This document shows, in pieces, positions 448-39,120 of a stretch of 64,000 nt of DNA. Source of the DNA: Bacillota bacterium (lineage in GTDB: Bacteria > Bacillota > Dethiobacteria > DTU022 > PWGO01); assembly GCA_012518215.1 (NCBI GenBank), contig JAAYSV010000008.1, forward strand, positions 166,452 to 230,451. The letters run 5' to 3'. Both the position numbers and the translations under genes were made by a program. Below the pieces are notes generated by a model that made no database searches, had not been told where the DNA came from, and saw only the letters and a list, made by a program, of their open reading frames with translations. The stretch's first letter is position 1; each line of letters opens with the position of its first letter.

Positions 448-645
448 TACCTTGACGAGATAGCGCACCACCACAAAATCCGGGTAAACCTTGCGGTGAC
501 AGTTCGTCAGCTCTTTGCAGACGACCCAGCATCCGATCCACAGGGAGGATGGATACTTCGGCGGCAACCCCTTTCCTTCGGTTCATCGGGCCCCTTCTTA
601 ACCCTCCGCAGAAATACTCTTGGCAACCGCGCCTCTACCCCATCC
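448..645 (-). promoter_or_regulatory. Lysine riboswitch (L-box) in the lysA leader
   Basis: The minus-strand sequence contains the L-box hallmarks in order: GGUAGAGGCGCGGUUGCCAAGAGUA, then GAAAGGGGUUGCCGCCGAAG, then ACUGUCACC, then GGUGCGCUAUCUCGUC. Compare the B. subtilis lysC leader: AGAGGUGCGAACUUCAAGAGUA, GAAAGGGGAGCGUCGCCGAAG, GGCUGUCA, GGGCUAUCUCG. It sits directly 5' of lysA. Confidence 0.75.
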
Positions 646-7888: not shown

Positions 7889-8677
7889 TTATAAATGACC
7901 TCCTTTTACGAGAATGGAAGCAAGTTTTTCCGCCTTTTCTTCCGGTTCACCCTCGATAAACTCCGCTGTCGAAACAACTTCCGGAATGTAAAGCTTGTTC
8001 AGAACGATCAACGAAGCAGACTCGTTCACCTGATCGGCAGGCATGGACAGATCGTCAAGATTCATTACCTTGAGTTCTTTTTTCTGCGCCTGTCTGATTC
8101 CCCTGATCGGGGCATAGCGGGGTTCGTTGATACCCGTCTGTATGGTCAGGACGGCCGGAAGGGCCACTTCCACAACCTCCATCAGCCCACCTTCAAGCTC
8201 CCTGCTTGCTTTTACCTTGCCATCAAGGACTTCAACATTTTTGACCATCGCCGCATGTGCCACACCCAGTTCTTCTGCCAGGGCCACCCCCACGGCCATC
8301 TGACCGTCATCGTTGGCCATGCAACCGGTGAGAACCAGGTCAAATTCTTGCCCCTTGATCGCTCCGGCAAGGACCTTGGCTATACAGATGGGGTCAAAGC
8401 TATTGATCCGGGGATCTTCTATGCGAATGGCACGATCCCCGCCCTTGGCAAGGGCCATACGGATCATGACTTCGGATTTCTGTGGCCCGATGGAAACGAC
8501 CGTGACCTCTCCTCCCTTGTCTTCCTTGATCAGCACGGATTCCTCGACCGCATAGTTGTCAGCATCGTTGATATCGAATGAAAATCGGCTGGAATCCACT
8601 GCCTTTCCGGTTTCGTCTAGTTTGATATCGGCTTCCGACGTATCCGGAACATACTTGATACAAACAAAAGTCTTCAC
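7889..8677 (-). CDS. etfB: Electron transfer flavoprotein beta subunit
   Basis: 262 aa starting MKTFVCIKYVPDTS... with a GTG start and SD GGAGGTGGAG. Confidence 0.9.
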   Translation of the reverse strand: MKTFVCIKYVPDTSEADIKLDETGKAVDSSRFSFDINDADNYAVEESVLIKEDKGGEVTVVSIGPQKSEVMIRMALAKGGDRAIRIEDPRINSFDPICIAKVLAGAIKGQEFDLVLTGCMANDDGQMAVGVALAEELGVAHAAMVKNVEVLDGKVKASRELEGGLMEVVEVALPAVLTIQTGINEPRYAPIRGIRQAQKKELKVMNLDDLSMPADQVNESASLIVLNKLYIPEVVSTAEFIEGEPEEKAEKLASILVKGGHL

Positions 8678-8709
8678 AAAACTCCACCTCCAACTTTCTA
8701 GTATTCGAT

Positions 8710-9852
8710 TTACATCACAGTGTCGATAATTTCCATTATTTCCGCTACCCTCATCTCTTCTTCAAGGCCCAATGCCTTGACAGCATCATCCAGAGTGAGT
8801 ACACAGAAAGGACAGGCTACGGCCACCACCTGTGCCCCCAGTTCTTTCGCATCCTTGATCCTTGTTTCCGCCAGGCGTTCCTCTTTCGATTCCGATTCCA
8901 CCCACATCTTCCCTCCGCCACCTTCACAGCAGAGGCTGCGTTCCCGGGAACGTTCAAATTCAACAAGTTCCACACCGGGGATGCTTTTCAGAATCATCCT
9001 CGGTTCATCAAAAATGAGGCTCTGCTTGCCCAGGAAGCATGGATCATGATAAACGATTCTCTCCTTCAACTCGCCCGAAAAACTCAATTGCTCTTTTTCA
9101 ATCAATTCGGCCAGAAGCTGTGTATAATGTATAACCTCGTGTTTCAGGCCTTCCATTTTCTTCAAAGCAGTCAGGCAATGGGGCGATAGGGTTACAATTC
9201 TTCCGGCGGAGAATTCATTGTATTTCTCCACCGTTTCCTCGGCCATCTCCCAGAAGAGTTCTTCCTCCCCCAGGGCTATGATCTCGCTGCCGCAGCAGGA
9301 TTCATCCTCGCCCAGAAAGGCATAGTCCACACCCGCTTTGTTGAGCAGCTTGACCATGTTTCTGGCTGTCGCCTGTACACGAGGATCGTAGGCAATCGTG
9401 CAGCAGACGAAAAAGAGATTTTCCACCTCCTGATCGGGATCGGCCAGTTTCACGTCCAGCCCATCCATCCAATCGTAACGGAGAGCCTTGGCCTTGTTCC
9501 AGGGGTTTCCTTCCAGGTATGTGCTTTCCAGAGCATCCCTGACAGTCGGCTGAACCTTCCCACTCTCTACCAGAAGATTGCGCAGGCCGAACAGAACCTC
9601 CACCGGTTTCAACCCCTTCGGGCATCTTACCGCGCAGGTATGACATCCGGTACAGTCCCATACTTCGACAAGGTGGGCAAGTTCATCCAGAAGGTCCTCG
9701 TTGTAAGCGTCATATACAAATCGACGTGGATTCAGATTTGTTCTGACTGTAACCGGGCAACCCCCGGTACACTTCCCGCACTGGATACAACCAAGTAAAT
9801 CAAATTTTTCTGTAAAAGAAATGTTTTCAACGCTCATCTTCATACCCCGCAT
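8710..9852 (-). CDS. HdrD/GlcF-like Fe-S oxidoreductase: N-terminal 2x[4Fe-4S] plus two CCG cysteine-rich domains (HdrC+HdrB-like fusion)
   Basis: Motifs present: CIQCGKCTGGCP and CTGCHTCAVRCP, then two CCG motifs (DESCCGSE, SLCCEGGGG) and CPFC. It is adjacent to etfBA, as in the ETF-linked Fe-S oxidoreductases of Syntrophomonas-type genomes. No obvious TM helix. The start could be M1, M4 or M6. Confidence 0.8.
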   Translation of the reverse strand: MRGMKMSVENISFTEKFDLLGCIQCGKCTGGCPVTVRTNLNPRRFVYDAYNEDLLDELAHLVEVWDCTGCHTCAVRCPKGLKPVEVLFGLRNLLVESGKVQPTVRDALESTYLEGNPWNKAKALRYDWMDGLDVKLADPDQEVENLFFVCCTIAYDPRVQATARNMVKLLNKAGVDYAFLGEDESCCGSEIIALGEEELFWEMAEETVEKYNEFSAGRIVTLSPHCLTALKKMEGLKHEVIHYTQLLAELIEKEQLSFSGELKERIVYHDPCFLGKQSLIFDEPRMILKSIPGVELVEFERSRERSLCCEGGGGKMWVESESKEERLAETRIKDAKELGAQVVAVACPFCVLTLDDAVKALGLEEEMRVAEIMEIIDTVM

Positions 9853-10078: not shown

Positions 10079-10207
10079 TTCGACATTAATTTGAATAAAT
10101 CCTGCTAAGTATATAGAAATTAAAGAAATATAAAACAAATTAGAAGATAATGTATTTGCGCGAAATATTTTTTTCAAAAAAAGAGGATATTTCCATTTTA
10201 TGTCGAA
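10079..10207. promoter_or_regulatory. AT-rich intergenic region with two Spo0A-box-like heptamers (TTCGACA at 10079-10085, TGTCGAA at 10201-10207)
   Basis: Exact matches to the 0A-box consensus TGTCGAA in opposite orientations. They flank the promoter region shared by the spo0E-like gene and the etf-hdr operon. Confidence 0.25.
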
Positions 10208-10241
10208 ATCAACCAACCGACCCAAAAATCGGGAGGATAAA

Positions 10242-10427
10242 ATGACGATGAAACATGAATTCAGTAATGCGCAGAAGACCAAACATCTTCAGGCAAAAAT
10301 TGAAGGGCTACGCACCAAAATGTACAACACCAGTTTTATCCATGGATGCCCTCTCGATAGCAAGACCATCCGGGCCAGCAAGAATCTGGATAAAGCTATC
10401 AACGAGTACATGAAAATAAAACAGTGA
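10242..10427 (+). CDS. Spo0E-family sporulation regulatory protein (aspartyl-phosphate phosphatase-like), 61 aa
   Basis: MTMKHEFSNAQKTKHLQAKIEGLRTKMYNTSFIHGCPLDSKTIRASKNLDKAINEYMKIKQ fits the Spo0E-like helical hairpin pattern (L..IE.LR..M......G......I..S..LD..I..Y). SD GGGAGGA lies 5 nt before ATG 10242. The ORF track started at 10200. Confidence 0.5.
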   Translation: MTMKHEFSNAQKTKHLQAKIEGLRTKMYNTSFIHGCPLDSKTIRASKNLDKAINEYMKIKQ

Positions 10428-10443: not shown

Positions 10444-11487
10444 CTATTTTTCCACAACGAGCAAACTGCCTGAATAATCAAGGACTTCTCCGACTGTATA
10501 ACAGCCAAGGCCTGCTCCGGTCATGGCATCTGTCAACCCCGGCAGCCGTGCAGGTGGTACGGACATAAGAAGCCCTCCGGATGTCTGCGGGTCAGCCATG
10601 AGCATCAACTTGCTGTCATCATCTACCATTATTTCCATTCTGGGCCGGTAAAAATCCAGGTTGCGGTAGGTACCGCCGGGAACAAAACCTTTTTCGAATA
10701 GCTCCTCCGTCCGGGGGTAAAGAGGCAGTGAACCCTGCCTGAGTTTGATGGAAACACGGCTTGATTCGGCCATCTCCGCTGCATGCCCCAGCAGTCCGAA
10801 ACCGGTAACATCCGTACAGGCGGAAACCCCGGACTGCTTCATGATCCGCGCAGCTCCATCATTCAACGCGGACATCCCGTCAAGAGCCTCTGCCACCTCC
10901 TCTTCCCTGACTGCCCCCCCTTTCAGGGCAGTGGTAATGATGCCGGTCCCTATGGGCTTGCTGAGTACCAGAACTTCTCCCGGCCGGGCTCCCGAAATGG
11001 TGACGAGTTCGCGTGGGTCTACCAGGCCCGTGACAGCCAGCCCGTATTTGGGTTCATCATCCTCGATGCTATGCCCTCCAACCACGACCGCTCCGGCTTC
11101 CTGGATTTTCACATGGCCGCCATGAAGAATATCTTTCAAAATATTACTTTTCAATTTTTGGCAAGGGAAAGAAACTATATTCAAAGCAGTAAGGGGTGTT
11201 CCGCCAACCGCGTAGATATCTCCCAGGGCGTTTGCCGCCGCGATCAAACCAAACAGGTAGGGATCGTCCACCACCGGGGTAAAATAATCGACCGATTGTA
11301 CCAGGGCGGTATCCTCTGCAATTTGAAATATTCCCGCGTCGGAGTTTTTTTCCTCACGGTTCAAGAAACGCCGATCCTCCGGCAGGGGCAATTGACGCAG
11401 AACCTGCGCCAGGGTCTCCGGACCTATCTTGGCTGCTCACCCGGCGCTACGTGCCAACGAGGTCAACCTCATTTTTTTCTCCGACAT
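10444..11487 (-). CDS. selD: Selenide,water dikinase (selenophosphate synthetase), selenocysteine-containing: in-frame TGA (Sec) at 11437-11439, codon 17
   Basis: ORF track gives 10444..11391 only. Reading upstream in frame gives MSEKKMRLTSLARSAG-U-AAKIGPETLAQVLRQLPLPEDRRFLN..., which aligns with E. coli SelD [23 protein letters not shown]; the UGA replaces Cys17. SD AAGGGGTG lies before ATG 11485-11487. The rest (SVDYFTPVVDDPYLFGLIAAANALGDIYAVGG...) is canonical SelD. Confidence 0.85.
11380..11436 (-). promoter_or_regulatory. Candidate SECIS region immediately 3' of the selD UGA
   Basis: mRNA: UGA GCAGCCAAGAUAGGUCCGGAGACCCUGGCGCAGGUUCUGC. A GGUC-CGGA-GACC hairpin starts 14 nt after UGA with outer GCAG...CUGC complementarity. 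The structure was not folded computationally. Confidence 0.3.
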
Positions 11488-11501
11488 CTGCCCACCCCTT
11501 T

Positions 11502-13415
11502 TCAAAGTTTCCAGGGTACACGATAATCCCCCACCCTTTTCGTGTACTTCTTCTGGTCAAAATGTTCCAGCAATGCTTGCATGTATTTCCGCGAACTCTG
11601 CAGGCAGTCACGAAATTGAGCCATCGTAAGCCGATCATGTTGGCGAAAATGATCCCGCAACATCTCCAGTGCCTCTTCATACAGATCCTGGAGCAGATAC
11701 ATATCTTCACTTATTTTGATTATCCAACCGCGATCGCTCATGTATTCCAGCAGAGATTCGAGGTCAGCAATCTTCCGGTCAGTGGAAGCCGCTATTTCTC
11801 TTGCCGGAGGAGGCTGGAACCGTGCTTCGCTCAGAATCGACTTGATCTTGCTGATGAAAATCTCCTCGCCGGGTGTCAGTTCAGGTACAAAACCGGCTCT
11901 GCAAACCTTCTCTCCCTGACAGCTCACCACCCCTTTGGCCTCCAGATTGTCCAGGAAAGCATCGTATTCCCTGATGGAGAGTTCTGCCGGAATTACGCCC
12001 CTCAACTGCGCCCGCGGAACCCCGGCCAGAAGAGGATGCTTGCGATGATAGTCATCCAGAAAAGCAGTTACCTCCTCTTCCCATTTTTCCAGCGTTTCCG
12101 CCGTTATATAACTGCCCCCCAGATCCATGATCTTTCCCTCATCCTTCAGTTCCCCGATAAGTGATTCCAGCTTCTCCTTTCCCAACCGGGCCATCGTTTC
12201 AAGCCGTGAAAAATCGGCCACTTTCAACTGGCTTATCTTCTGGACCACGTATGATCTGTCCGTTCCGGAAGTCAGAATCTCTCTCTCCAGTTCCCGGAGG
12301 GTTTTTATGATTGTGCGGCGGGCGCGGCGCGGCCTCCTTTCCGAGAAAGGGTCGAGGACCATCCCCCCACCAATCGTCACCACCGGCGAATAGGAGCGGA
12401 TGATGAAACGGTCCTTCCTGTCGGCGACCAGCGGCGACTCCAACCTGAGCTGGACAAGCCCCCTTTCCCCGGGCCGCAGGATCTCTTTATCCAGAATAGC
12501 CATACGCGCCACCACCCGGGACGTGCCAAGATAAAGATGCAGGGGGTCCAGGTTCTTCACGTCCCTGGTAACTCTATTCAATATCGTCACGGAGGCATCG
12601 AGCATCGATGTCCGCCTGAAATAACCCGGGGAACAGATCACGCTTCCCCGTTCCAGTTCACTCTTTTCCACCCCCGAAAGATTTATGGCCACCCTGTGTC
12701 CGGCAAAAGCTTCCTTGACACCGTGATTGAAAACCTCGATGTTGCGCACGCGCGCTTTCTCCCCCGCGGGCAACACTTCCACGATATCACCGATGCCCAC
12801 GCGCCCCTGGATGAGCGTGCCCGTCACTATCGTGCCAAACCCGGATATGATGAAGGAACGGTCAACGGGAAGCCGCATCGGTGCATTCAGGTCGCGGGGT
12901 GCGACCATCCTTGTAAGCCGATCAAGCATCGCCCGCAATTCCTCTATCCCGGATCCGGTTACCGCCGAAACCCGGCAGAAAGGGGCTTCCTGCAGGAAAG
13001 TACCCCGAAGTTCTCCTCGCACCTCTTCCTCCACCATGTCCAACCATTCTTCATCGACAAGGTCGATTTTGGTCAGCACGACCAGTCCTTTTTCCAGTCC
13101 CAGCAATTGCAGAATGTTGAGGTGTTCGCGGGTCTGGGCCATAACTCCCTCGGAGGCATCGATCACCAGCAGTACAAGATCTATGCCCGCGGTACCCGCC
13201 AGCATATTGTTGATAAATCTTTCGTGGCCCGGAACATCTATTATTCCCGCTACCCGGCCTCCGGACAAAGAAAAAGAAGCAAAACCCAGATCGATGGAGA
13301 TGCCCCTTTCCTTTTCTTCCTTGAGCCGATCCGTGTCCACCCCGGTAATCGCACTGATCAGCGCCGTCTTGCCATGGTCAACATGGCCGGCCGTACCGAT
13401 TATCACCGCATCCAA
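11502..13415 (-). CDS. selB: Selenocysteine-specific translation elongation factor SelB
   Basis: MDAVIIGTAGHVDHGKTALI... with GTPase G1-G4 motifs and a long winged-helix C-terminus. TTG start with SD GGAGTG 7 nt upstream. It lies 14 nt upstream of selD. Confidence 0.9.
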   Translation of the reverse strand: MDAVIIGTAGHVDHGKTALISAITGVDTDRLKEEKERGISIDLGFASFSLSGGRVAGIIDVPGHERFINNMLAGTAGIDLVLLVIDASEGVMAQTREHLNILQLLGLEKGLVVLTKIDLVDEEWLDMVEEEVRGELRGTFLQEAPFCRVSAVTGSGIEELRAMLDRLTRMVAPRDLNAPMRLPVDRSFIISGFGTIVTGTLIQGRVGIGDIVEVLPAGEKARVRNIEVFNHGVKEAFAGHRVAINLSGVEKSELERGSVICSPGYFRRTSMLDASVTILNRVTRDVKNLDPLHLYLGTSRVVARMAILDKEILRPGERGLVQLRLESPLVADRKDRFIIRSYSPVVTIGGGMVLDPFSERRPRRARRTIIKTLRELEREILTSGTDRSYVVQKISQLKVADFSRLETMARLGKEKLESLIGELKDEGKIMDLGGSYITAETLEKWEEEVTAFLDDYHRKHPLLAGVPRAQLRGVIPAELSIREYDAFLDNLEAKGVVSCQGEKVCRAGFVPELTPGEEIFISKIKSILSEARFQPPPAREIAASTDRKIADLESLLEYMSDRGWIIKISEDMYLLQDLYEEALEMLRDHFRQHDRLTMAQFRDCLQSSRKYMQALLEHFDQKKYTKRVGDYRVPWKL

Positions 13416-13452: not shown

Positions 13453-14871
13453 CTATTCCCCGGGATTTACCGCCTTCATCATCACGGTAACAATTTCTTC
13501 CTCCTGTCCGGGCAAAACGGTCCGCAAATCCAGAAGCAAATGTTCCTGGTGGACCCTCGCTATCAGGGGGGGGTCTCCCCACCGCAATCTTTTCATCAAC
13601 TCCTCCGCCGAAATGTCCCCGGATCGGTAGGAGATCAGATACGTGGGCAATTCTGCCAGGGGCATGGCTCCACCCCCCACACAGGAGGTCCCTTTCATTA
13701 TCTGCCAATCCCCTGCCTTGACCTGCTGTTTCAAACGGCGCAGCAAACGGTCAGCCCTCGCCTTCAGGTCACGGGTATCAGCGGTCAACATCCCCAGAAC
13801 GGGAATTTCACATCGGGCCTTCTCGTGGTCATGATAGAGGCGTAAAGTCGCCTCCATGGCCGCGATGGTTAGTTTATCAACGCGCAATGCCCTTGACAGC
13901 TGGTTATCACGCAACCGCCGGATCAGGTCCCTGTCCCCTACAATTATCCCTGCCTGCGGTCCGCCAAGGATCTTGTCCCCGCTGAATGAGACTGCCCCGA
14001 CACCCTCTTCGAGGCATTCTTGCACGGTGGGTTCCGGAGGCAACCCGTATTCGGTGAGATCATAAAAAGCCCCACTGCCCAGATCTTCCACCACCGGCAA
14101 GCCAACCTGCCGACCCAGGGAAACCAGTTCTTTCCGGGAAACCTCCTCCGTAAAACCAATGATACGATAATTGCTTGTATGTACCTTCAGGAGCAATGCA
14201 GTCCGATCAGAAATGGCTCTTTCATAATCATGCCGGTAACATTTGTTCGTAGTTCCCACTTCCACCAGCGTTGCCCCGCTGGCTTTCATGACATCGGGAA
14301 CACGGAACCCTCCCCCTATCTCGACCAGTTGCCCGCGGGAAACGATAACTTCCCTATCCCTGGCCAAAGTATTGAGAAGAAGCAATACCGCCGCGGCATT
14401 GTTGTTGACAATCAGGGAAGCTTCCGCCCCGGTCAAGGTGCATACCAGCCCCTCCACGTGGGCCAGCCGTGAATCCCTCCGGCCACTTTCCAGCGAAAGT
14501 TCAAGATTGGAATACTGCCCCGCCGTGGATGTAACTGCGTGGATAGCCTGTTCGGCCAGCGGCGCCCGCCCCAGATTGGTATGCAATATAACCCCTGTTG
14601 CATTGATCACATGGCGCAGCCCGGAAAAAAACCGCAGCCTTGCCCTTTCCGCGGCTTCGGCAGCAATCACGGCGGGGTCGATGGCCAGGTTTTCAAGTTC
14701 CTCGCCGGAGGAAGAAGCGATGATTTTCTCTCTGAAATGATCTATGCTCTCGCGTGAAACTTCGAGCAGGAGACCGTGGGGAATCCGATTCGCGATTTTT
14801 TGCAGGGGCTCTTCCTGCAAGATACGGTCCACCGCCGGCAAGGCCCTGAGAAAAGAGTTTTTAACGTCCAT
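13453..14871 (-). CDS. selA: L-seryl-tRNA(Sec) selenium transferase
   Basis: ORF 13453..14901 trimmed to ATG 14871 (SD AGAGGTG, spacer 5). The sequence MDVKNSFLRALPAVDRILQEEPL... is a typical SelA N-terminus. Confidence 0.9.
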   Translation of the reverse strand: MDVKNSFLRALPAVDRILQEEPLQKIANRIPHGLLLEVSRESIDHFREKIIASSSGEELENLAIDPAVIAAEAAERARLRFFSGLRHVINATGVILHTNLGRAPLAEQAIHAVTSTAGQYSNLELSLESGRRDSRLAHVEGLVCTLTGAEASLIVNNNAAAVLLLLNTLARDREVIVSRGQLVEIGGGFRVPDVMKASGATLVEVGTTNKCYRHDYERAISDRTALLLKVHTSNYRIIGFTEEVSRKELVSLGRQVGLPVVEDLGSGAFYDLTEYGLPPEPTVQECLEEGVGAVSFSGDKILGGPQAGIIVGDRDLIRRLRDNQLSRALRVDKLTIAAMEATLRLYHDHEKARCEIPVLGMLTADTRDLKARADRLLRRLKQQVKAGDWQIMKGTSCVGGGAMPLAELPTYLISYRSGDISAEELMKRLRWGDPPLIARVHQEHLLLDLRTVLPGQEEEIVTVMMKAVNPGE

Positions 14872-14905
14872 CCCGACACCTCTGACATATGATTTGATCA
14901 TTTAC

Positions 14906-15266: not shown

Positions 15267-16448
15267 TTACATCCCTTTCACCAGCGTGGCAACGCCCTGC
15301 CCGCCTCCGATACAGAGAGAAGCGACACCCAGGTTGCTTTTTCTTCTCCTCATCTCGAAAATCAAAGTGATGAAGATCCTGGCGCCGCTGGCCCCGATAG
15401 GATGGCCCAGAGCAATCGCCCCGCCGTTGACGTTGACAATCTCCGGGTTCACCTGCAGCTCTTTCAGTACAGCCAGGGATTGGGAAGCAAAAGCTTCATT
15501 CAATTCAAAAAGATCGATATCTTCAACGGAGAGGCCGGTCTTCTTGAACAGGCGCCGGCAAGCAGCTATGGGGCCGGTTCCCATCACCCGGGGTTCAACC
15601 CCCGCCGAGGCAAAATTGATCACCTCCACCATGGGCTTCAGGCCAAGCTTCCCCACCACCCTGCCGGAAGCAAGGACCACTGCAGCAGCACTGTCGTTGA
15701 TGCCCGAAGCGTTGCCTGCCGTAACCGTACCATCTTTTTTGAATGCCGGGCGAAGGGCCGCCAGTTTTTCCAGGGTTGTCCCCCGCCGGGGATGTTCATC
15801 GGTGCTGAAAGGCAGCGGTTCACCCTTTCTCTGCGGGACAGGCACGGGTATTATCTCATCATCAAACCTTCCTTCATCAATGGCGGCGATGGCCCTGTGC
15901 TGGCTCTGCAAGGCAAAAAGGTCCTGATCTTCCCTGCTGATATTGTAATCATCCGCAATATTCTCGGCCGTGATCCCCATGTGTATGTCCTCGAACGCAC
16001 ACCAGAGGCCATCCAGAATCATCGCGTCCTGCATCACCGTATGCCCCATCCGCCCCCCCCATCTGGCCATCGGCGCGAGATAGGGAGCCGCACTCATATT
16101 CTCCATCCCCCCGGCCACAACGATATCTGCATCCCCGAGCATGATGCTCTGGGCACCCAGATTGATCGCCTTCAGCCCGGAACCGCAGACCTTGTTTACC
16201 GTCAATACCGGTACTTCCACGGGTATCCCGGCATTGACAGCAGCCTGTCGGCCGGAACTCTGCCCGAGCCCCGCTTGCAGAACATTGCCCATGATCACTT
16301 CATCCACATCTTTCTTGTCCAATCCCGCCCTTTTCAGCGCTTCCTCGATGACAATAGAGCCGAGCTTCACCGCCGTTACATCTCTCAAGGACCCACCGAA
16401 GCTACCTACCGCTGTTCGCACCGCACCTACCACATATACTTTCTCCAC
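15267..16448 (-). CDS. Acetyl-CoA C-acetyltransferase (thiolase II)
   Basis: ORF 15267..16460. I prefer GTG 16446-16448 (SD GAGGTGA, spacer 8), giving MEKVYVVGAVRTAVGSFGGSLRDV..., which matches the clostridial ThlA N-terminus. Catalytic Cys in NKVCGSGLKA; C-terminal GHPIGASGARI...CIGGGQG. Confidence 0.9.
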   Translation of the reverse strand: MEKVYVVGAVRTAVGSFGGSLRDVTAVKLGSIVIEEALKRAGLDKKDVDEVIMGNVLQAGLGQSSGRQAAVNAGIPVEVPVLTVNKVCGSGLKAINLGAQSIMLGDADIVVAGGMENMSAAPYLAPMARWGGRMGHTVMQDAMILDGLWCAFEDIHMGITAENIADDYNISREDQDLFALQSQHRAIAAIDEGRFDDEIIPVPVPQRKGEPLPFSTDEHPRRGTTLEKLAALRPAFKKDGTVTAGNASGINDSAAAVVLASGRVVGKLGLKPMVEVINFASAGVEPRVMGTGPIAACRRLFKKTGLSVEDIDLFELNEAFASQSLAVLKELQVNPEIVNVNGGAIALGHPIGASGARIFITLIFEMRRRKSNLGVASLCIGGGQGVATLVKGM

Positions 16449-16494
16449 TTGCAGTTTCACCTCTGATTCTATATGTTAAAAAATTGCCCCTGGT

Positions 16495-16532
16495 TCATAA
16501 AAAGGCGGGTGGCGTAACCAACGCCGCCCGCC
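16495..16532 (-). terminator. Intrinsic terminator between acyl-CoA dehydrogenase and thiolase genes
   Basis: GGCGGGCGGCG-UUGGUUA-CGCCACCCGCC, an 11-bp GC-rich stem, followed on the minus strand by CUUUUUAUGA. Confidence 0.65.
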
Positions 16533-16563
16533 TCTTTCAACTCCCGCTTACCCTTTCAACAGT

Positions 16564-18348
16564 CTACTTCTCCAAAAAGTATTTCTTCGCCTTGTAAGCC
16601 TCATCTGCCAATTCGCGCTTGATAACATAGGTGTTGAGCGGAATATTACGGCTCAGCAGGAGGATGTTATCCGTATTTCTTGCTGCTTTTTCCGGTTCAA
16701 AAGTACCGGCAATGACCTCGTTGGTCCATGCCTGGCATTTCGGAACCATTTCGCTCACCAGGCACTGGGTCATCAACATCGGCAGGCGGGCAGCTTCCTC
16801 ACCACTTTCAGCGGCAATCTTCCTCGCCCTCAGCAAGGAGCTTTCAGCGGCGAAAACTTCCATGGCAATATTGGCCAGGGCCACCAGAATCTCCTGTTCC
16901 TGCTCGATGGCCTGTTCAAACTGACGTGCTGCATTGCCGCAAGCCAGCAGGAATAGTTTCTTCATGTTTTCAATGACGAAGGCTTCCTTCTCCGGTGACT
17001 CCGTGGGTACCTCCATCTCTTTCAGCTTGTCAAGTTCCCCTTTCAATCCGAAGACAGCGTCCATGAAAGGAAGGTCGCCGCTCATCGCCTTGGGAAGAAG
17101 GGTTCCGGGGATAAGCATGCGGTTGACCTCGTTGGTGCCTTCAAAAATCCGGTTGATACGGCTATCCCGGTACAACCTTTCCACGATATATTCGGCCGAA
17201 TAACCGTAACCACCGTAGATCTGCACTGCCTCATCGACGATCTGATCCAGCCCTTCCGAGCAGTAAACCTTGTTGATCGAACATTCAATGGCGTATTCAC
17301 GAATCGAATTGACAACCTGCTGGTTGGCATCCTCGGCATCCATGTCCACATCTTCCATCTTGGTGTCGATCAGTCCCACGGTGCGATAGACCATACTTTC
17401 CATGGCATAGGTCTTGATCAACATGTCGGCAATCTTGTTCTTGATCAGGTTGAACTGCGCGATGGGCTGGTTGAACTGATGCCTCTCCAGTGCATATTCG
17501 ATCGAAGCTTCAATTGCTTTCTTGGCCCCGCCGACTGCACCGGCAGCCAGCTTGAAGCGGCCGATATTCAAGATATTCAGCGCCACCTGATGTCCCTTGC
17601 CGATCACATGAAGAACGTTTTCCACGGGAACCTTGCAGTCTTCCATGATCACGCTGCAGGTCGAAGATCCATGGATCCCCATCTTCTTCTCCTCGGGACT
17701 GATGGAAAGCCCTTCCGAATCACGATCAACGATAAAAGCGGTGAACTTCTCTCCGTCAATCTTGGCGAATACAATGATCACGTCCGCCCAGGCAGCATTG
17801 GTAATAAACATCTTGGTCCCGTTAAGTATGTAATGCTTGCCGTCTTCAGTCAGAACAGCCGTGGACCTTGCGTTCATGGCATCGGAACCGGCTTCCGGTT
17901 CAGTCAGTGCATATGCCGCAATTTTGTTTCCCACTGCCAGATCGGGAAGATAGCGTTCCTTCTGCTCCTTGGTACCGAAATAGACGATCGGCAGGGTACC
18001 GATACCCGTATGAGCACCGAATGCCGTGGAGAAGGAACCTGAATAGGTCAGGGCTTCGGCAATGAGCGCCGAAGTAGTCTTGTCCCCACCGTCTCCGCCA
18101 TATTCTTCGGGAATATCGCTGCCAAGAAGCCCCAGTTCCCCCGCTTCTTTCAACAGGCCTACCGTCACCCCTTCGGCTTTGGCTTCGATCTCATCAGTGA
18201 GGGGAAATACTTTGTTCTCACCAAAATCATCACACGTCTTCTTGATCATAAGATGCATGTCATCCAGTTCTTCGGGGGTAAAAACATCATCTGGACCAAG
18301 CTGGCTGAGCAAGAAAGACCCACCTTTTACATAATCCTGTTCACTCAT
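16564..18348 (-). CDS. Acyl-CoA dehydrogenase, long (~594 aa) form with C-terminal extension
   Basis: ORF 16564..18387 trimmed to ATG 18348 (SD AAGGAGGAG, spacer 9; MSEQDYVKGG...). ACAD N/M/C domains are present (YALTEPEAGSDA, catalytic region IYGGYGYSAEYIVERLYRDSRINRIFEGTNEVNR) plus an extra ~200-aa C-terminal domain. Confidence 0.9.
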   Translation of the reverse strand: MSEQDYVKGGSFLLSQLGPDDVFTPEELDDMHLMIKKTCDDFGENKVFPLTDEIEAKAEGVTVGLLKEAGELGLLGSDIPEEYGGDGGDKTTSALIAEALTYSGSFSTAFGAHTGIGTLPIVYFGTKEQKERYLPDLAVGNKIAAYALTEPEAGSDAMNARSTAVLTEDGKHYILNGTKMFITNAAWADVIIVFAKIDGEKFTAFIVDRDSEGLSISPEEKKMGIHGSSTCSVIMEDCKVPVENVLHVIGKGHQVALNILNIGRFKLAAGAVGGAKKAIEASIEYALERHQFNQPIAQFNLIKNKIADMLIKTYAMESMVYRTVGLIDTKMEDVDMDAEDANQQVVNSIREYAIECSINKVYCSEGLDQIVDEAVQIYGGYGYSAEYIVERLYRDSRINRIFEGTNEVNRMLIPGTLLPKAMSGDLPFMDAVFGLKGELDKLKEMEVPTESPEKEAFVIENMKKLFLLACGNAARQFEQAIEQEQEILVALANIAMEVFAAESSLLRARKIAAESGEEAARLPMLMTQCLVSEMVPKCQAWTNEVIAGTFEPEKAARNTDNILLLSRNIPLNTYVIKRELADEAYKAKKYFLEK

Positions 18349-18414
18349 ACAACAATTCTCCTCCTTGATTTTTTTTAAATAAAACATTTTTGGTTGAAAC
18401 CAATAACTATACTT

Positions 18415-18438
18415 ACTTAACTATTTCGCTAGTTAAGT
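18415..18438. promoter_or_regulatory. Perfect 9-bp inverted repeat ACTTAACTA-N6-TAGTTAAGT, candidate repressor operator upstream of the acyl-CoA dehydrogenase gene
   Basis: Seen directly about 70-90 bp upstream of the ACAD start in an AT-rich promoter region. It has dyad symmetry typical of TetR/FadR-type operators. Confidence 0.4.
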
Positions 18439-18815
18439 TTTATTCCCTGCAAGATTCCAAAAAAAATATATTTAATTTTGCCACATCCTGCAATATTGCC
18501 ACTTCATGCGCAAGTCCCGCAAATTTAACGGCCCCATTCAGCCGGTACATTGTCCCCCTGTACCATTTTTGAAAACAAATCGGTTATTTCCCGGGCAAGC
18601 GCAAAATGCGATTCCATTCCCTGTTTTTTGCCAAAATCAGTTTTCGTCCCCTCCCCGGGTCTGAAAAAGTGTATCCTTTCCCCGCGCCTCCGTGTTTCTT
18701 GGTTTCGCGCACTGTTGTAAAACATTGATACAAATCTGCCATTATTTTTACAATTAAAAATAAACGAATCTGTGTTTTAATGTAATAGCGATCATGTTAT
18801 GGGACGTGGTATGTC

Positions 18816-21260
18816 ATGTTTGGAAACAAGGAACGATTCAAAGCATGTTTTGTTGAAAAACTCAAAAATCTACGCGGGAAAGATTGCCTGCAAGCAACTT
18901 CTCTGGATATTTACCAGGTTCTGGGCACGATGATCCGTGAAGCGATCACGGATGAATGGTCGGCTACGATGGCGCGGTATCATGAACTGGGTGCCAAGCA
19001 AGTTTACTATCTGTCCATGGAATTTCTCCTGGGGCGTCTGCTGGAAAGCAACATGATCAATCTTCATATCCTGGAACTGTGCCGCGAAGGGTTGCACGAA
19101 CTTGGCATCGAACTGGCCGACATTGTCGCTGAAGAACCCGATGCCGGCCTGGGAAACGGCGGCCTTGGCCGCCTGGCGGCCTGTTTTCTGGATTCCCTGG
19201 CTTCCCTGGGCCTGCCTGGCCATGGATGTGGAATCAGATACAGATACGGGCTTTTTGAACAAAAAATTGTCGATGGTTACCAGATAGAACTCCCCGAAAA
19301 CTGGCTCAAGGAGGGCAATGTCTGGGAAATACGCCGGGTAGAGGAAACGGTTGAGGTAAAGTTTGGCGGGCACATCGAATTTGAAGAAAGAAATGGCCGC
19401 TACTTTTTCCACCATAGAAATGCTGAAATAATCAATGCGGTTCCCTATGATATGCCCATGATCGGCTTTGATGGCAAGACTGTCAATACGCTTCGCTTGT
19501 GGGATGCCGAGGCATCCAAAACCGAACTGTGCGCCATCATGGACTGTTACCAGCGTATCGTTGACTACAAGCATAACCTGGAATCAATCTCTGCTTTTCT
19601 CTATCCCGACGACTCACATCATGAGGGCAAAATACTGCGTCTCAAACAACAGTATTTTCTTGTTTCCGCCGCCATCCAGAGTATCACCCGCTGTGTCAAA
19701 AACAGGTATGGTTCCCTGGAAAGATTGAACGAGCTGGTGGCAATCCATATCAATGACACTCACCCGGCTCTGGCCATTCCCGAACTCATGCGCATCCTGA
19801 TGGACAGGGAGGGAATGTCCTGGGAAAAAGCATGGGAAATCACAACCGGGACAATCTCTTACACCAACCATACCACCCTCGTGGAGGCTCTTGAAAAATG
19901 GCCCGTGGGTCTGTTCAAACCATTGCTGCCACGTATCTACATGATCATCGAGGAGATCAACAACCGTTTCTGCCAAACCATAATGAAAGAATACCCCCTC
20001 TACCGGGACAAGATCGGCTCCATGTCCATCATTGCCGACAAACACGTGAAGATGGCTCATCTTGCCCTGGTAGGCAGTCACAGTATAAACGGTGTAGCCA
20101 GGTTGCATACCGAAATCCTCAAACACCGGGAGATGAAAAATTTCTACGGGATATTTCCGGGGAAATTCAATAACAAGACCAACGGGATCACTCACCGCCG
20201 TTGGCTTTTGAAGGTCAACCCGCTGCTGTCAAATCTGATCAACGAAACCATCGGGCCGGATTGGATCAAACACCCCCGTTCCCTGATAGCATTATCTGAT
20301 TATGTCGAAGATTCAGCTTTTCTGGACAGGCTTTACGATATAAAACAGTGCAACAAAGCTGCGCTGGCCCGGATTGTAGAGGAAAAACATGACCTTAAAA
20401 TCGATACCCATTCCATCTTCGACGTCCAGGTAAAACGGCTCCACCTTTACAAACGCCAGCTGCTCAACATCATGCACATCATGGATCTCTACAACCGCCT
20501 TCTGGAAAACCCGGATATACAGATAACCCCCCGCACCTTTATTTTTGCAGCCAAGGCATTCCCGAACTATTATCTGGCCAAAAAAATAATCAAGCTGATC
20601 AACACCGTGGCCGGGGTTATCAATACCGACCGCAGGATAAGGGACCGCATCAAGGTCGTCTTCCTGGAAAATTACCGTGTTTCGCTGGCTGACATCATTA
20701 TCCCCGCAGCAGATCTGAGCCAGCAGATCTCGACGGCGAGCAAGGAAGCTTCCGGTACAGGCAACATGAAATTCATGTTGAACGGCGCGGTGACAATCGG
20801 CACCCTTGATGGTGCCAACATCGAAATAATGGAAGCCGTCGGTGAAGACAATATCATCACATTCGGATTGACGGCCGATGAAGTCAACAATTATCATGAA
20901 AAAGGTCATTACCGTTCTACCGATATCTACAACACCAACCCCCGTATCAGGAAGGTAACCGACCAGCTGATAAACGGTTTTCTTCCCACCGGGGAACATG
21001 AATTCAGGGCCATTTTCGATCATCTCATCGGCGGCAACGATGAATTTTTTGTGTTGAAGGATCTCCCCTCTTTCGGTGCCGCCCGTGAAAGGGCGGAGCA
21101 TGCATACGGCAACAGGCAAAGCTGGCAGAAAAAATGCGCTGTCAACATCGCCCACGCGGGCAAATTTTCCAGCGACCTTACGATAAAAAGATATGCCGAT
21201 GAGATCTGGAAAATCGAGCCCGTTACCACAGCCCTGCCGACAGAAATCGGTCAGCGGTAA
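18816..21260 (+). CDS. glgP: Glycogen / maltodextrin phosphorylase
   Basis: 814 aa with GT35 family motifs (YYLSMEFLLGR, EPDAGLGNGGLGRLAACFLDS, PLP-Lys region EASGTGNMKFMLNGA). Confidence 0.9.
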   Translation: MFGNKERFKACFVEKLKNLRGKDCLQATSLDIYQVLGTMIREAITDEWSATMARYHELGAKQVYYLSMEFLLGRLLESNMINLHILELCREGLHELGIELADIVAEEPDAGLGNGGLGRLAACFLDSLASLGLPGHGCGIRYRYGLFEQKIVDGYQIELPENWLKEGNVWEIRRVEETVEVKFGGHIEFEERNGRYFFHHRNAEIINAVPYDMPMIGFDGKTVNTLRLWDAEASKTELCAIMDCYQRIVDYKHNLESISAFLYPDDSHHEGKILRLKQQYFLVSAAIQSITRCVKNRYGSLERLNELVAIHINDTHPALAIPELMRILMDREGMSWEKAWEITTGTISYTNHTTLVEALEKWPVGLFKPLLPRIYMIIEEINNRFCQTIMKEYPLYRDKIGSMSIIADKHVKMAHLALVGSHSINGVARLHTEILKHREMKNFYGIFPGKFNNKTNGITHRRWLLKVNPLLSNLINETIGPDWIKHPRSLIALSDYVEDSAFLDRLYDIKQCNKAALARIVEEKHDLKIDTHSIFDVQVKRLHLYKRQLLNIMHIMDLYNRLLENPDIQITPRTFIFAAKAFPNYYLAKKIIKLINTVAGVINTDRRIRDRIKVVFLENYRVSLADIIIPAADLSQQISTASKEASGTGNMKFMLNGAVTIGTLDGANIEIMEAVGEDNIITFGLTADEVNNYHEKGHYRSTDIYNTNPRIRKVTDQLINGFLPTGEHEFRAIFDHLIGGNDEFFVLKDLPSFGAARERAEHAYGNRQSWQKKCAVNIAHAGKFSSDLTIKRYADEIWKIEPVTTALPTEIGQR

Positions 21261-21302
21261 CTGCTGCACCCCTGTTTCCTTTCGATTGCAGCCATAAAAA
21301 TT

Positions 21303-21337
21303 CATAAAAAATGGGGAGAACGCAAATCGTTCACCCC
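21303..21337 (-). terminator. Candidate terminator after the HTH gene
   Basis: Minus strand: GGGGUGAACG-AUUUG-CGUUCUCCCC followed by AUUUUUUAUG. Confidence 0.4.
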
Positions 21338-21375
21338 GGTTGTTACTTCCTCCACCCCATCAAGCCCGAAAAGGT

Positions 21376-21981
21376 CTATCCGTTTTCTTTTTCTTTCAGG
21401 GCCTGGATCTTCTTGGACAATATTTCAATCTTCTTCTCCAGTTGTTCCACATCCTGCCTGGTAACGATCTTGCTTCTGACCGCCTCGACCCCCTCCATCA
21501 ATTTGATCAGATAGATATTTTTCTGTTCTTCAAATTTATCCATGAACGAATCGACCAGACTGTCGGCATCCTCGATGTGCAGGCCCCCTTTTTCGGCCAG
21601 AGACCTGGTCAGCTCCTCGGCCCTGTCTTTCCATTCCAGGACAAAATCGATGGCCTGCGATATAAATTCACCGGACAACAATGCCTCCACGATGCCACTT
21701 TCCTTGATACAAAAACCCTTTTTCCCCTCCGGAACCCCCGGTGAGGCGTCCGCGGCTGGAGAAGACTGCGGATCGGTGTCGGTAACCGCCTGTTCCACTA
21801 TCCGGTCGGCTTTTCGCATCCGTTTCCTTTCAATTTCCTCATCTGTCAAAGATACCAACCAATGCCCACGATTGTCTTTGCGCGCCTCTATTGTTTTACG
21901 TTCTATCCTCCTCTGGATCGCGCTCGGTGTAACTCCAAGAAGCAACGCCGCCTCTTTCTTCGAATATTCCCTTCTGCTCAT
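21376..21981 (-). CDS. Excisionase-family (HTH_17-type) DNA-binding protein with long C-terminal coiled coil
   Basis: N-terminus KKEAALLLGVTPSAIQRRIERKTIEARKDNRGHWLV matches MerR/excisionase-type HTH (PF12728-like). The C-terminal half is acidic and coiled-coil. It lies directly downstream of tRNA-Sec. Confidence 0.6.
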   Translation of the reverse strand: MSRREYSKKEAALLLGVTPSAIQRRIERKTIEARKDNRGHWLVSLTDEEIERKRMRKADRIVEQAVTDTDPQSSPAADASPGVPEGKKGFCIKESGIVEALLSGEFISQAIDFVLEWKDRAEELTRSLAEKGGLHIEDADSLVDSFMDKFEEQKNIYLIKLMEGVEAVRSKIVTRQDVEQLEKKIEILSKKIQALKEKENG

Positions 21982-22114
21982 GCTTTACCCCCCTGTCAAA
22001 TCAACTTCAAGTCTGCCCCCGGAAACAAACTGATGGAATGGCACCACTCACACTTCATTTTACCACAAATTATGTTTTACGTTAACCCCAACTTCTCTTC
22101 TTGCAACACAGCAA

Positions 22115-22210
22115 TGGCGGGAGTAGATGGGAATCGAACCCACCGTGGACGGATCGCGCCCACCACTGGATTTGAAGTCCAGGAGCGTCACCAGACCGCC
22201 AACTACCCCC
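22115..22210 (-). tRNA. selC: tRNA-Sec (anticodon UCA), 96 nt
   Basis: Minus strand: GGGGGTAGTTGGCGGTCTGGTGACGCTCCTGGACTTCAAATCCAGTGGTGGGCGCGATCCGTCCACGGTGGGTTCGATTCCCATCTACTCCCGCCA. It has an 8-bp acceptor stem, an anticodon loop CTTCAAA identical to E. coli selC, a long variable arm, and encoded CCA. Confidence 0.9.
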
Positions 22211-22397
22211 GTGCAGGAAACTTGTCCACACATTATCTTACTAGAATCATCCGAATTAATCAACCTTGAACAGCTCCCCCGGAAACTGCTTCAAAACGGG
22301 GCTGTGCCAAAGAAATTGGCATTCAAGCAGGACATCTTCTCCCTTTGTTTGAATATTTTAAACATATATCTATCAAACATCGGGAGGGAAAAATAAT

Positions 22398-23843
22398 ATG
22401 CCTGAAAACAAATATATCAGCAGCCTGAAAAAATTGAAGCGCAAAGTCTATATCCGGGGCACCCCGGTCGATGCACCGCAGGAACATCCGCTGGTGCAGC
22501 TCAGCACCGCAGCAGTAGCCCGGTCCTATGCTCTGCAGGGCCAGCCGGAACACGAACAGCTGATCTATGCGAACTCTCATCTGGATGGCCGCCGCATCAA
22601 TCGTTTCACCCATATTCATCGCTCGGCAGAAGACCTGATCAACAAGGTAAAGTTGCAGCGTCTTCTTGGCCAGCAGACGGGAACATGCTTTCAGCGTTGC
22701 GTGGGCATGGACGCTTTGAATGCACTGGAAATCACCACTTTTGAACTGGAACGGGATCTGGGCACACCCTATCATCGTAATTTCAACCATTTCCTGCAGC
22801 AGGTTCAGGAGGAGAATGCTGTCTGTGACGGGGCAATGACCGACCCCAAGGGGGATCGCAGCAAGCGCCCCCATGAACAGGCCGACCCCGATCTATACCT
22901 GCGAGTAGTCAGCCGGAACAGGGAAGGTATCGTGGTCAACGGTGCGAAATGCCATCAGACCGGCGCGCTCAATTCCCACTACATCATCGCCATGCCAACC
23001 ACGGCAATGCGTGAAGAGGACCGTGATTATGCCGTGGCCTTTGCCGTGGAAGCGGATAACCCGCAATTGATCTACATTCTGGGGCGCCAACCTTCGGATC
23101 TCCGCAAAATGGAACCTGATCGTGCCGACACCGGCAACATGTATTTCGGTGGACAGGAATGCCTCATCATCTTCGATCATGTTTTTATCCCCTGGGAAAG
23201 AGTATTCCTCTGCGGGGAATACGATTATTCCGGCCGGCTGGTCGAACGTTTTGCCGGTTATCATCGCCAGAGCTACGGCGGCTGCAAGACCGGAGTGGGC
23301 GACCTGCTTATCGGTGCAGCGGCCTCATTGGCAGAATACCATGGCCTCGACAGGGCTTCCCACATCAAGGATAAACTTGTGGAGATGATTCATCTGAATG
23401 AAACGATATTCTGCTGCGGTATTGCCTGCTCTTCCCGGGGCAACCCCACCGCTTCGGGAACGTATCTTGTTGACCTTCTGCTGGCCAATGTCTGCAAATT
23501 GAATGTGACCCGTTTTCCCTACGAGATAGCAAGGCTTGCCGAGGACATCGCCGGCGGTCTGGTGGCCACCCTGCCATCACTGAAAGATCTGGAACATCCG
23601 GAGATCGGGCCGTTGTTGAAAAAATATTTTCAAGGCGTTGCCGGCATGGAAACCACCTGCCGCCTCAGGATGCTGCGTTTTGTGGAAAACCTTACCCTGG
23701 GAGCAGCAGCCGCCGCCTACCTGACCGAATCCTTGCATGGCGCCGGTTCACCTCAGGCCCAGCGGGTGGTCATCGCCAGGCAGGCTGATCTGGAAGGGAA
23801 GAAAAGAATGGCCCGGAAGTTGGCTGGAATCAAGGATGATTGA
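22398..23843 (+). CDS. abfD: 4-hydroxybutyryl-CoA dehydratase / vinylacetyl-CoA delta-isomerase
   Basis: 481 aa, collinear with Clostridium aminobutyricum AbfD. The 4Fe-4S ligand motifs CFQRCVG and H(x6)C (YHRQSYGGCKTG) are conserved, as are FAD-fold regions (DGAMTDPKGDR, HLNETIFCCGIAC). SD GGGAGGG. Confidence 0.9.
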   Translation: MPENKYISSLKKLKRKVYIRGTPVDAPQEHPLVQLSTAAVARSYALQGQPEHEQLIYANSHLDGRRINRFTHIHRSAEDLINKVKLQRLLGQQTGTCFQRCVGMDALNALEITTFELERDLGTPYHRNFNHFLQQVQEENAVCDGAMTDPKGDRSKRPHEQADPDLYLRVVSRNREGIVVNGAKCHQTGALNSHYIIAMPTTAMREEDRDYAVAFAVEADNPQLIYILGRQPSDLRKMEPDRADTGNMYFGGQECLIIFDHVFIPWERVFLCGEYDYSGRLVERFAGYHRQSYGGCKTGVGDLLIGAAASLAEYHGLDRASHIKDKLVEMIHLNETIFCCGIACSSRGNPTASGTYLVDLLLANVCKLNVTRFPYEIARLAEDIAGGLVATLPSLKDLEHPEIGPLLKKYFQGVAGMETTCRLRMLRFVENLTLGAAAAAYLTESLHGAGSPQAQRVVIARQADLEGKKRMARKLAGIKDD

Positions 23844-38780: not shown

Positions 38781-38855
38781 TGGTGGGCGATGTAGGATTT
38801 GAACCTACGACCCCCTGCTTGTAAGGCAGGTGCTCCCCCGCTGAGCTAATCGCCC
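38781..38855 (-). tRNA. tRNA-Val (anticodon TAC)
   Basis: GGGCGATTAGCTCAGCGGGGGAGCACCTGCCTTACAAGCAGGGGGTCGTAGGTTCAAATCCTACATCGCCCACCA. Confidence 0.9.
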
Positions 38856-38859
38856 GGAT

Positions 38860-38935
38860 TGGTGACCCCTAGGGGATTTGAACCCCTGCTGCCAGCTTGA
38901 AAGGCTGGTGTCCTAACCGATTAGACCAAGGGGCC
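38860..38935 (-). tRNA. tRNA-Glu (anticodon TTC)
   Basis: GGCCCCTTGGTCTAATCGGTTAGGACACCAGCCTTTCAAGCTGGCAGCAGGGGTTCAAATCCCCTAGGGGTCACCA. Confidence 0.9.
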
Positions 38936-38964
38936 GGCCATATCAACATTATTGTACAAATAGG

Positions 38965-39040
38965 TGGTGGGCCCACCAGGGCTCGAACCTGGGACCGACC
39001 GGTTATGAGCCGGCTGCTCTTCCGGCTGAGCTATGGGCCC
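38965..39040 (-). tRNA. tRNA with CAT anticodon (elongator Met or lysidine-modified Ile2; not initiator)
   Basis: GGGCCCATAGCTCAGCCGGAAGAGCAGCCGGCTCATAACCGGTCGGTCCCAGGTTCGAGCCCTGGTGGGCCCACCA. The anticodon loop CTCATAAC resembles Bacillus tRNA-Ile(LAU). It lacks the initiator 3xGC anticodon-stem signature. Confidence 0.8.
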
Positions 39041-39044
39041 ACAA

Positions 39045-39120
39045 TGGCACCCCAGGCAGGATTCGAACCTGCAACCTATCGGTTAACAGCCGATTGCTCT
39101 ACCGTTGAGCTACTGAGGTA
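39045..39120 (-). tRNA. tRNA-Asn (anticodon GTT)
   Basis: ACCTCAGTAGCTCAACGGTAGAGCAATCGGCTGTTAACCGATAGGTTGCAGGTTCGAATCCTGCCTGGGGTGCCA. The 5' end is +/-1 nt. Confidence 0.85.

Follow-up and report, generated by a model that had tools for sequence, protein, structure and literature searches.

The mechanical open-reading-frame call for selD in the window (the whole stretch of DNA that was analysed, 64,000 nucleotides) covers 10444..11391 on the minus strand and gives a product of 315 aa from a TTG start. The same frame continues upstream across a TGA. This raises two questions: does this TGA encode selenocysteine (Sec), and which RNA hairpin would direct its decoding? We concluded, with a probability of roughly 93%, that selA, selB, and selD form an operon here and that selD, its last gene, specifies a Sec-containing selenophosphate synthetase.

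The selD reading frame and its internal TGA

On the minus strand, the selD frame runs from ATG 11487-11485 through 16 codons to TGA 11439-11437, and then through 330 codons to TAG 10446-10444. Together with the homology described below, this defines a full-length coding sequence at 10444..11487 of 347 codons plus TAG, with the predicted Sec codon (11437..11439) at position 17. Translation from ATG 11487 reads MSEKKMRLTSLARSAG-TGA-AAKIGPETLAQVLRQL..., in which the TGA is the single internal stop, and the minus-strand sequence around the start is ...CTTTGAAAAGGGGTGGGCAGATGTCGGAG.... Direct reading confirmed a Shine-Dalgarno (SD) sequence, GGGGTG, at 11498-11493 (minus strand, 11493..11498), separated from the ATG by a 5-nt spacer. 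The ATG lies exactly 14 nt past the selB stop (TGA 11504-11502), and both features agree with the initial annotation. Its claim that an in-frame UGA at codon 17 had cut the open reading frame short was also correct. The TTG used by the mechanical call (11389..11391, minus strand) is codon 33. The same TGA context was found in seven independent metagenome assemblies from different samples, with 0-1 mismatch over 191 nt, which excludes a sequencing or assembly error.

We then compared the predicted protein, with the UGA position filled, to known selenophosphate synthetases. It scored 371.3 bits against the NCBIfam equivalog TIGR00476 (cutoff 125) and 328 against NF002098 (cutoff 299). It aligned over its whole length with E. 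coli SelD (3u0o; E = 2.6e-69, residues 1-345 against 1-344) and also with Aquifex aeolicus SelD (2yye). In the E. coli alignment the UGA falls on Cys17 (HGAGCGCKI), as previously proposed, and the lysine three residues on corresponds to Lys20. Around this site the sequence almost matches that of the Cys form of the Aquifex protein (PDB 2yye/2zod), with RSAGUAAKIGP in the window against the deposited RSSGCAAKVGP and the UGA on its Cys. The N-terminal glycine-rich loop of the window protein is S-A-G-U-A-A-K, and the product contains the Cys/Sec and Lys loop of SelD only when translation passes the UGA. The E. coli protein is colinear with that of the window and shares its catalytic loop and its metal and ATP ligands. 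The ATP/metal residues D50, D67, N86, D90, and D226 were invariant in a 20-sequence family alignment and map to E. coli D51, D68, N87, D91, and D227. The two genes differ at residue 17: the window has UGA, whereas the E. coli gene encodes Cys there (TGY) and does without a SECIS.

The comparison with SelD orthologues was extended to 80 species-level loci from a genome collection, the closest of which is 56-58% identical to the window protein. The codon aligned with the UGA was TGA in about 66 of the 80 and TGC or TGT in the other 14, and the motif (R/K)LT-x6-G upstream of the Sec/Cys codon was conserved. Full-length Cys-type proteins (P0012, P0014, and P0016) carry SSGCAAK. One database homologue of 347 aa, P0114, has Leu at this position (SSGLAAK), and it may be catalytically odd or a translation or sequence artefact. 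A 78%-identical relative was recovered from other metagenomes (L005-L007) and retains the ATG, the SD, and the TGA. Eight of the 16 codons before the TGA differ between the window and this relative, and five of these changes are synonymous, at the third position. This mostly synonymous pattern marks the stretch before the TGA as translated.

The alternative that the TGA is a genuine stop, leaving a pseudogene or a truncated protein behind a 16-codon chance frame or leader peptide, is the reading followed by every automated call on record. Of the best 120 database homologues of the selD product, only 11 reach 343-347 aa, and the other 109 do not exceed 330 aa. Calls of 306 aa begin at the TTG of codon 42, and include P0121, identical to the window protein over 306 residues, and P0001, which differs at one residue. 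A JGI call is 315 aa and starts at codon 33. The 78% relative was called as 322 aa, and as 327 aa in the NCBI MAG record MFY9113905.1 (P0124), assigned to a Dethiobacteria bacterium. The latter begins MGPETL, from a start just past the Sec codon that coincides with an Ile codon (ATA in L005), indicating that curated pipelines cut selD short too. These four starts differ from each other and are arbitrary, and none of the resulting products retains the catalytic Sec/Lys loop shared by all homologues. No in-frame ATG, GTG, or TTG was found between the TGA and TTG 11391, and the TTG itself has no SD; initiation there or later loses the G-U/C-x-x-K loop (Sec17/Lys20). Together with the retention of the TGA across species, the synonymous changes ahead of it, and the complete Sec machinery adjacent to the gene, this makes a genuine stop extremely improbable.

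Instead, codon 17 of selD almost certainly encodes the catalytic selenocysteine. The prediction that pipelines treating TGA as a stop would report an N-terminally truncated SelD is borne out by the public calls of 306-327 aa for this gene and its relatives. Setting the coding sequence to 10444..11487 and reading codon 17 as Sec yields the right protein and marks the organism as a selenium user, a gain that is practical and not conceptual.

Selenocysteine machinery and genomic setting

The window encodes all four components of the Sec pathway, SelA, SelB, SelD, and tRNA-Sec. The Sec-specific elongation factor gene selB (11502..13415, minus strand; TIGR00475, 403 bits) lies directly upstream of selD, and the selenocysteine synthase gene selA lies beyond it (13453..14901, minus strand; TIGR00474, 589 bits). 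A tRNA-Sec gene (selC) with anticodon TCA was located at 22115..22210 on the minus strand by ARAGORN and by Rfam (RF01852, 73 bits). The SelB winged-helix domains PF09106 and PF09107 were found in identical loci. In the window and in other assemblies selB is a single open reading frame of 637 aa. On one metagenome contig that is 99% identical to the window (L001:951-2863) it was called as two frames of 285 and 352 aa, a split that is likely a frameshift from an assembly error.

This setting also bears on whether the UGA could be read as a standard amino acid, Trp, Gly, or Cys, through an alternative code or near-cognate read-through. Under selenium limitation, Cys is known to be misincorporated at Sec codons, which speaks for such decoding. 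Against it, UGA is a real stop in the same operon, where the selB TGA is followed by the SD and ATG of selD; a normal stop 14 nt upstream of the selD start argues that no alternative genetic code is in use. In addition, the window has a dedicated tRNA-Sec, selA, and selB, the UGA occupies the catalytic Cys/Sec site, and a covarying hairpin downstream of it, described below, is specific to Sec-type genes and absent from Cys-type genes. We consider decoding as a standard amino acid very improbable.

Under the preferred reading, in which the UGA specifies Sec, translation of selD would begin at ATG 11487, and at codon 17 a SECIS hairpin inside the coding sequence would recruit SelB-GTP with Sec-tRNA(Sec). 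Sec would then enter the S-A-G-U-A-A-K loop and take the role that Cys17 has beside Lys20 in E. coli. The predicted SelD would supply the selenophosphate required by SelA. As SelA needs selenophosphate from SelD, the synthesis of SelD would depend on its own product. We infer both the actual insertion of Sec at this UGA and the choice of the hairpin bound by SelB. The status of selD as a selenoprotein gene, as first proposed, is strongly supported by homology, TGA conservation, synonymous changes, the presence of selA, selB, and tRNA-Sec, and the truncated public calls.

Sec-containing SelD proteins are known from Aquifex aeolicus, Haemophilus influenzae, Eubacterium acidaminophilum (in a selDABC cluster), Moorella, and Clostridium. 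The window gene shares with Sec-type bacterial SelD the PurM-like AIRS/AIRS_C enzyme type, the predicted Sec residue in an N-terminal G-U-x-x-K loop, a candidate SECIS within the coding region just downstream, and clustering with selA and selB. We found no difference in kind; the gene order in the window is selA-selB-selD, with tRNA-Sec 7 kb away. SelD is a selenoprotein across many bacteria (PMC1794560, PMC12013277, PMC13188914), and the two most widespread selenoproteins in bacteria are FdhA and SelD, with SelD second (PMC1794560). The finding is a correct and useful annotation fix, and the arrangement itself is ordinary and already well known.

The operon is set among beta-oxidation and electron-transfer genes (7889-9852 and 15267-23843). 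These neighbors include genes for a thiolase, an acyl-CoA dehydrogenase, ETF subunits, a CCG/4Fe-4S oxidoreductase, a glycogen phosphorylase, and an HpaB-family protein resembling 4-hydroxybutyryl-CoA dehydratase. A Spo0E-like open reading frame (10200-10427, plus strand) is convergent with selD. Contigs identical to the window came from biogas-fermenter metagenomes. Together, the neighboring genes and the origin of these contigs suggest that the host is a syntrophic fatty-acid-oxidizing, Bacillota-like anaerobe. Rich selenoproteomes have been documented for this lifestyle (PMC1794560, Table 3).

We also searched the window for other selenoprotein genes and obtained 110 ORF-TGA-ORF candidates in six frames, of which the ten largest had no Cys/Sec-like context. 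These ten were rejected, either as out-of-frame noise or as ordinary genes preceded by untranslated sequence, such as those resembling PPDK, GlyS, and DapA. A promoter and terminator scan of the sel operon gave no decisive signal. Elsewhere in the window, Rfam identified a lysine riboswitch at 453-645 (minus strand; RF00168, 102 bits), and a tight cluster of tRNA genes for Asn, Met, Glu, and Val was found at 38781-39119 (minus strand).

Candidate SECIS hairpins downstream of the UGA

Two small hairpins, here denoted H1 and H2, can be drawn in the coding sequence after the UGA. H1 is GGUC-CGGA-GACC at +13..+24 (11413..11424, minus strand). H2 is UGGCGCAG-GUU-CUGCGUCA at +26..+44 (11393..11411, minus strand), with its apical loop GUU at 11403-11401. 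The initial annotation had proposed H1, enclosed by an outer stem GCAG...CUGC and starting 14 nt after the UGA, as the SECIS. The small hairpin exists. Its GGUC begins at +13, with 12 nt intervening, so the given distance was incorrect, and the hairpin is weak: folded alone it reached -3.3 kcal/mol (z = -1.1), and 58 of 200 shuffles were as stable. H2 folded alone reached -10.2 kcal/mol (z = -4.7), and none of 200 shuffles was as stable. When the 45-60 nt after the UGA were folded whole, their stability did not exceed that of shuffles (z = -0.5 to +0.2), and H2 stands out only as an isolated hairpin.

The enclosing stem between GCAG (+1..+4) and CUGC (+37..+40) was rejected, as relatives pair it at 73% and its covariation did not rise above that of shuffles. 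In every MFE fold, CUGC (+37..+40) instead pairs with the adjacent GCAG (+30..+33) within the 8-bp stem of H2.

In the published bSECIS model the loop has 3-9 nt and the stem 4-16 bp, the distance from the UGA is 16-37 nt, the MFE is -7.5 kcal/mol or lower, and a G occurs within the first two loop positions (PMC13188914). The bSECIS check of the region after the UGA, also proposed earlier, was made with a scanner using these published criteria, and it passed H2 and not H1. With its GUU loop, 8-bp stem, 33-nt spacing, and -10.2 kcal/mol, H2 lies within all five limits, although the spacing is near the far end of the published range of 16-37. H1 fails on energy, reaching -7.4 kcal/mol even with its lower stem, against -7.5. 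Rfam at the gathering threshold matched tRNA-Sec and no SECIS family, and a permissive scan of 11340-11500 (E <= 10) also gave no SECIS family, with only the chance matches RAGATH-5, Rev41, and HOTTIP_2. Bacterial SECIS elements are heterogeneous, according to published reviews.

Pairing of H2 was next examined among related genes. The register was bimodal among 69 distinct Sec-type sequences, with all eight pairs present in 27 and seven of eight in 5, and full pairing was found in none of the 13 Cys-type genes. Across these 32 H2-class sequences the stem was 98% paired, a figure that is partly circular because the subset was selected for pairing, and two-sided changes were observed at five of the eight pairs. 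One pair shows GC, AU, CG, and UA. The encoded residues covary across the hairpin while the stem is kept (A...R, T...S, and A...G). The invariance of G and U in the loop also follows from a conserved Val codon. Under a synonymous-codon null for the window sequence alone, pairing of all eight positions reached no better than P = 0.035.

The apex of H2, GCAGGUUCUGC, resembles that of the E. coli fdhF SECIS, GCAGGUCUGC. The fdhF apex reads GCA-GGUC-UGC (sequence verified in 5419 of 5426 E. coli genomes) and that of the window GCA-GGUUC-UGC; the loop exposes a G and a U, which in fdhF have a structural role. Both elements are stem-loops that follow the UGA within the coding sequence. The upper stem of the fdhF SECIS has a bulged U and starts 11 nt past the UGA, whereas the stem of H2 begins 25 nt after it, has no bulge, and is preceded by the small extra hairpin H1.

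Taken from folding, covariation, and the bSECIS limits, H2 is the best SECIS candidate and probably the SelB-binding element. The hairpin that would recruit SelB is most likely UGGCGCAG-GUU-CUGCGUCA, which overlaps the codons L-A-Q-V-L-R-Q.

It is also conceivable, though unlikely, that H1 is the functional SECIS, alone or with H2, and that H2 is an accessory or unrelated mRNA structure. The stem of H1 starts at +13, close to the verified +12 of fdhF, its CGGA loop has a G at the second position, and its 4/4 pairing has a synonymous-codon probability of 0.036. Its low stability and its energy just short of the bSECIS threshold weigh against this, and H1 was only 70% paired in H2-class relatives. 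Moreover, its pairing potential is largely due to the G-P-x-(T/D) codons (GGN-CCN...ACC/GAC-CUN), and 5 of 13 Cys-type genes have a version of it in a shifted register. The distribution of hairpins across loci bears on the same choice.

Two hairpin positions among Sec-type selD genes

We applied the scanner to positions +1..+60 after the Sec codon in 69 distinct Sec-type and 13 Cys-type selD loci (L008-L087). Strong bSECIS-compliant hairpins were found in 39 of the 69 Sec-type loci and in none of the 13 Cys-type loci. They fell into two groups. In a proximal class (14/69), mainly from Dehalococcoidia and deltaproteobacterial MAGs, the loop is at +17..+21, as in GUCCAGG-GGA-CCUGGAC. In a distal class (26/69), mainly from Bacillota and Desulfuromonadales, the loop is at +33..+38, mostly at +34. 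Both positions passed in only one locus.

The proximal class favors H1 to the extent that these 14 loci have their sole strong hairpin in the H1 zone. However, a locus with a strong hairpin at one position almost never has one at the other, and the window falls in the distal class, in keeping with H2 as the preferred element.

We tentatively suggest that the SECIS of Sec-type selD may occupy either of two nearly exclusive sites, with the loop 16-20 or 32-33 nt after the UGA. If true, the SECIS would have moved along the selD coding sequence in evolution while the Sec codon stayed fixed, and SelB and the ribosome would accept spacings that differ by about 16 nt inside one gene family. Two alternative positions could also help to tune bacterial SECIS predictors. 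This is the sole mildly new point of the analysis. The proximal and distal hairpins overlap different codons of selD, and the predicted loop in the window lies 33 nt from the UGA, against 16-20 nt in the other subset of Sec-type genes.
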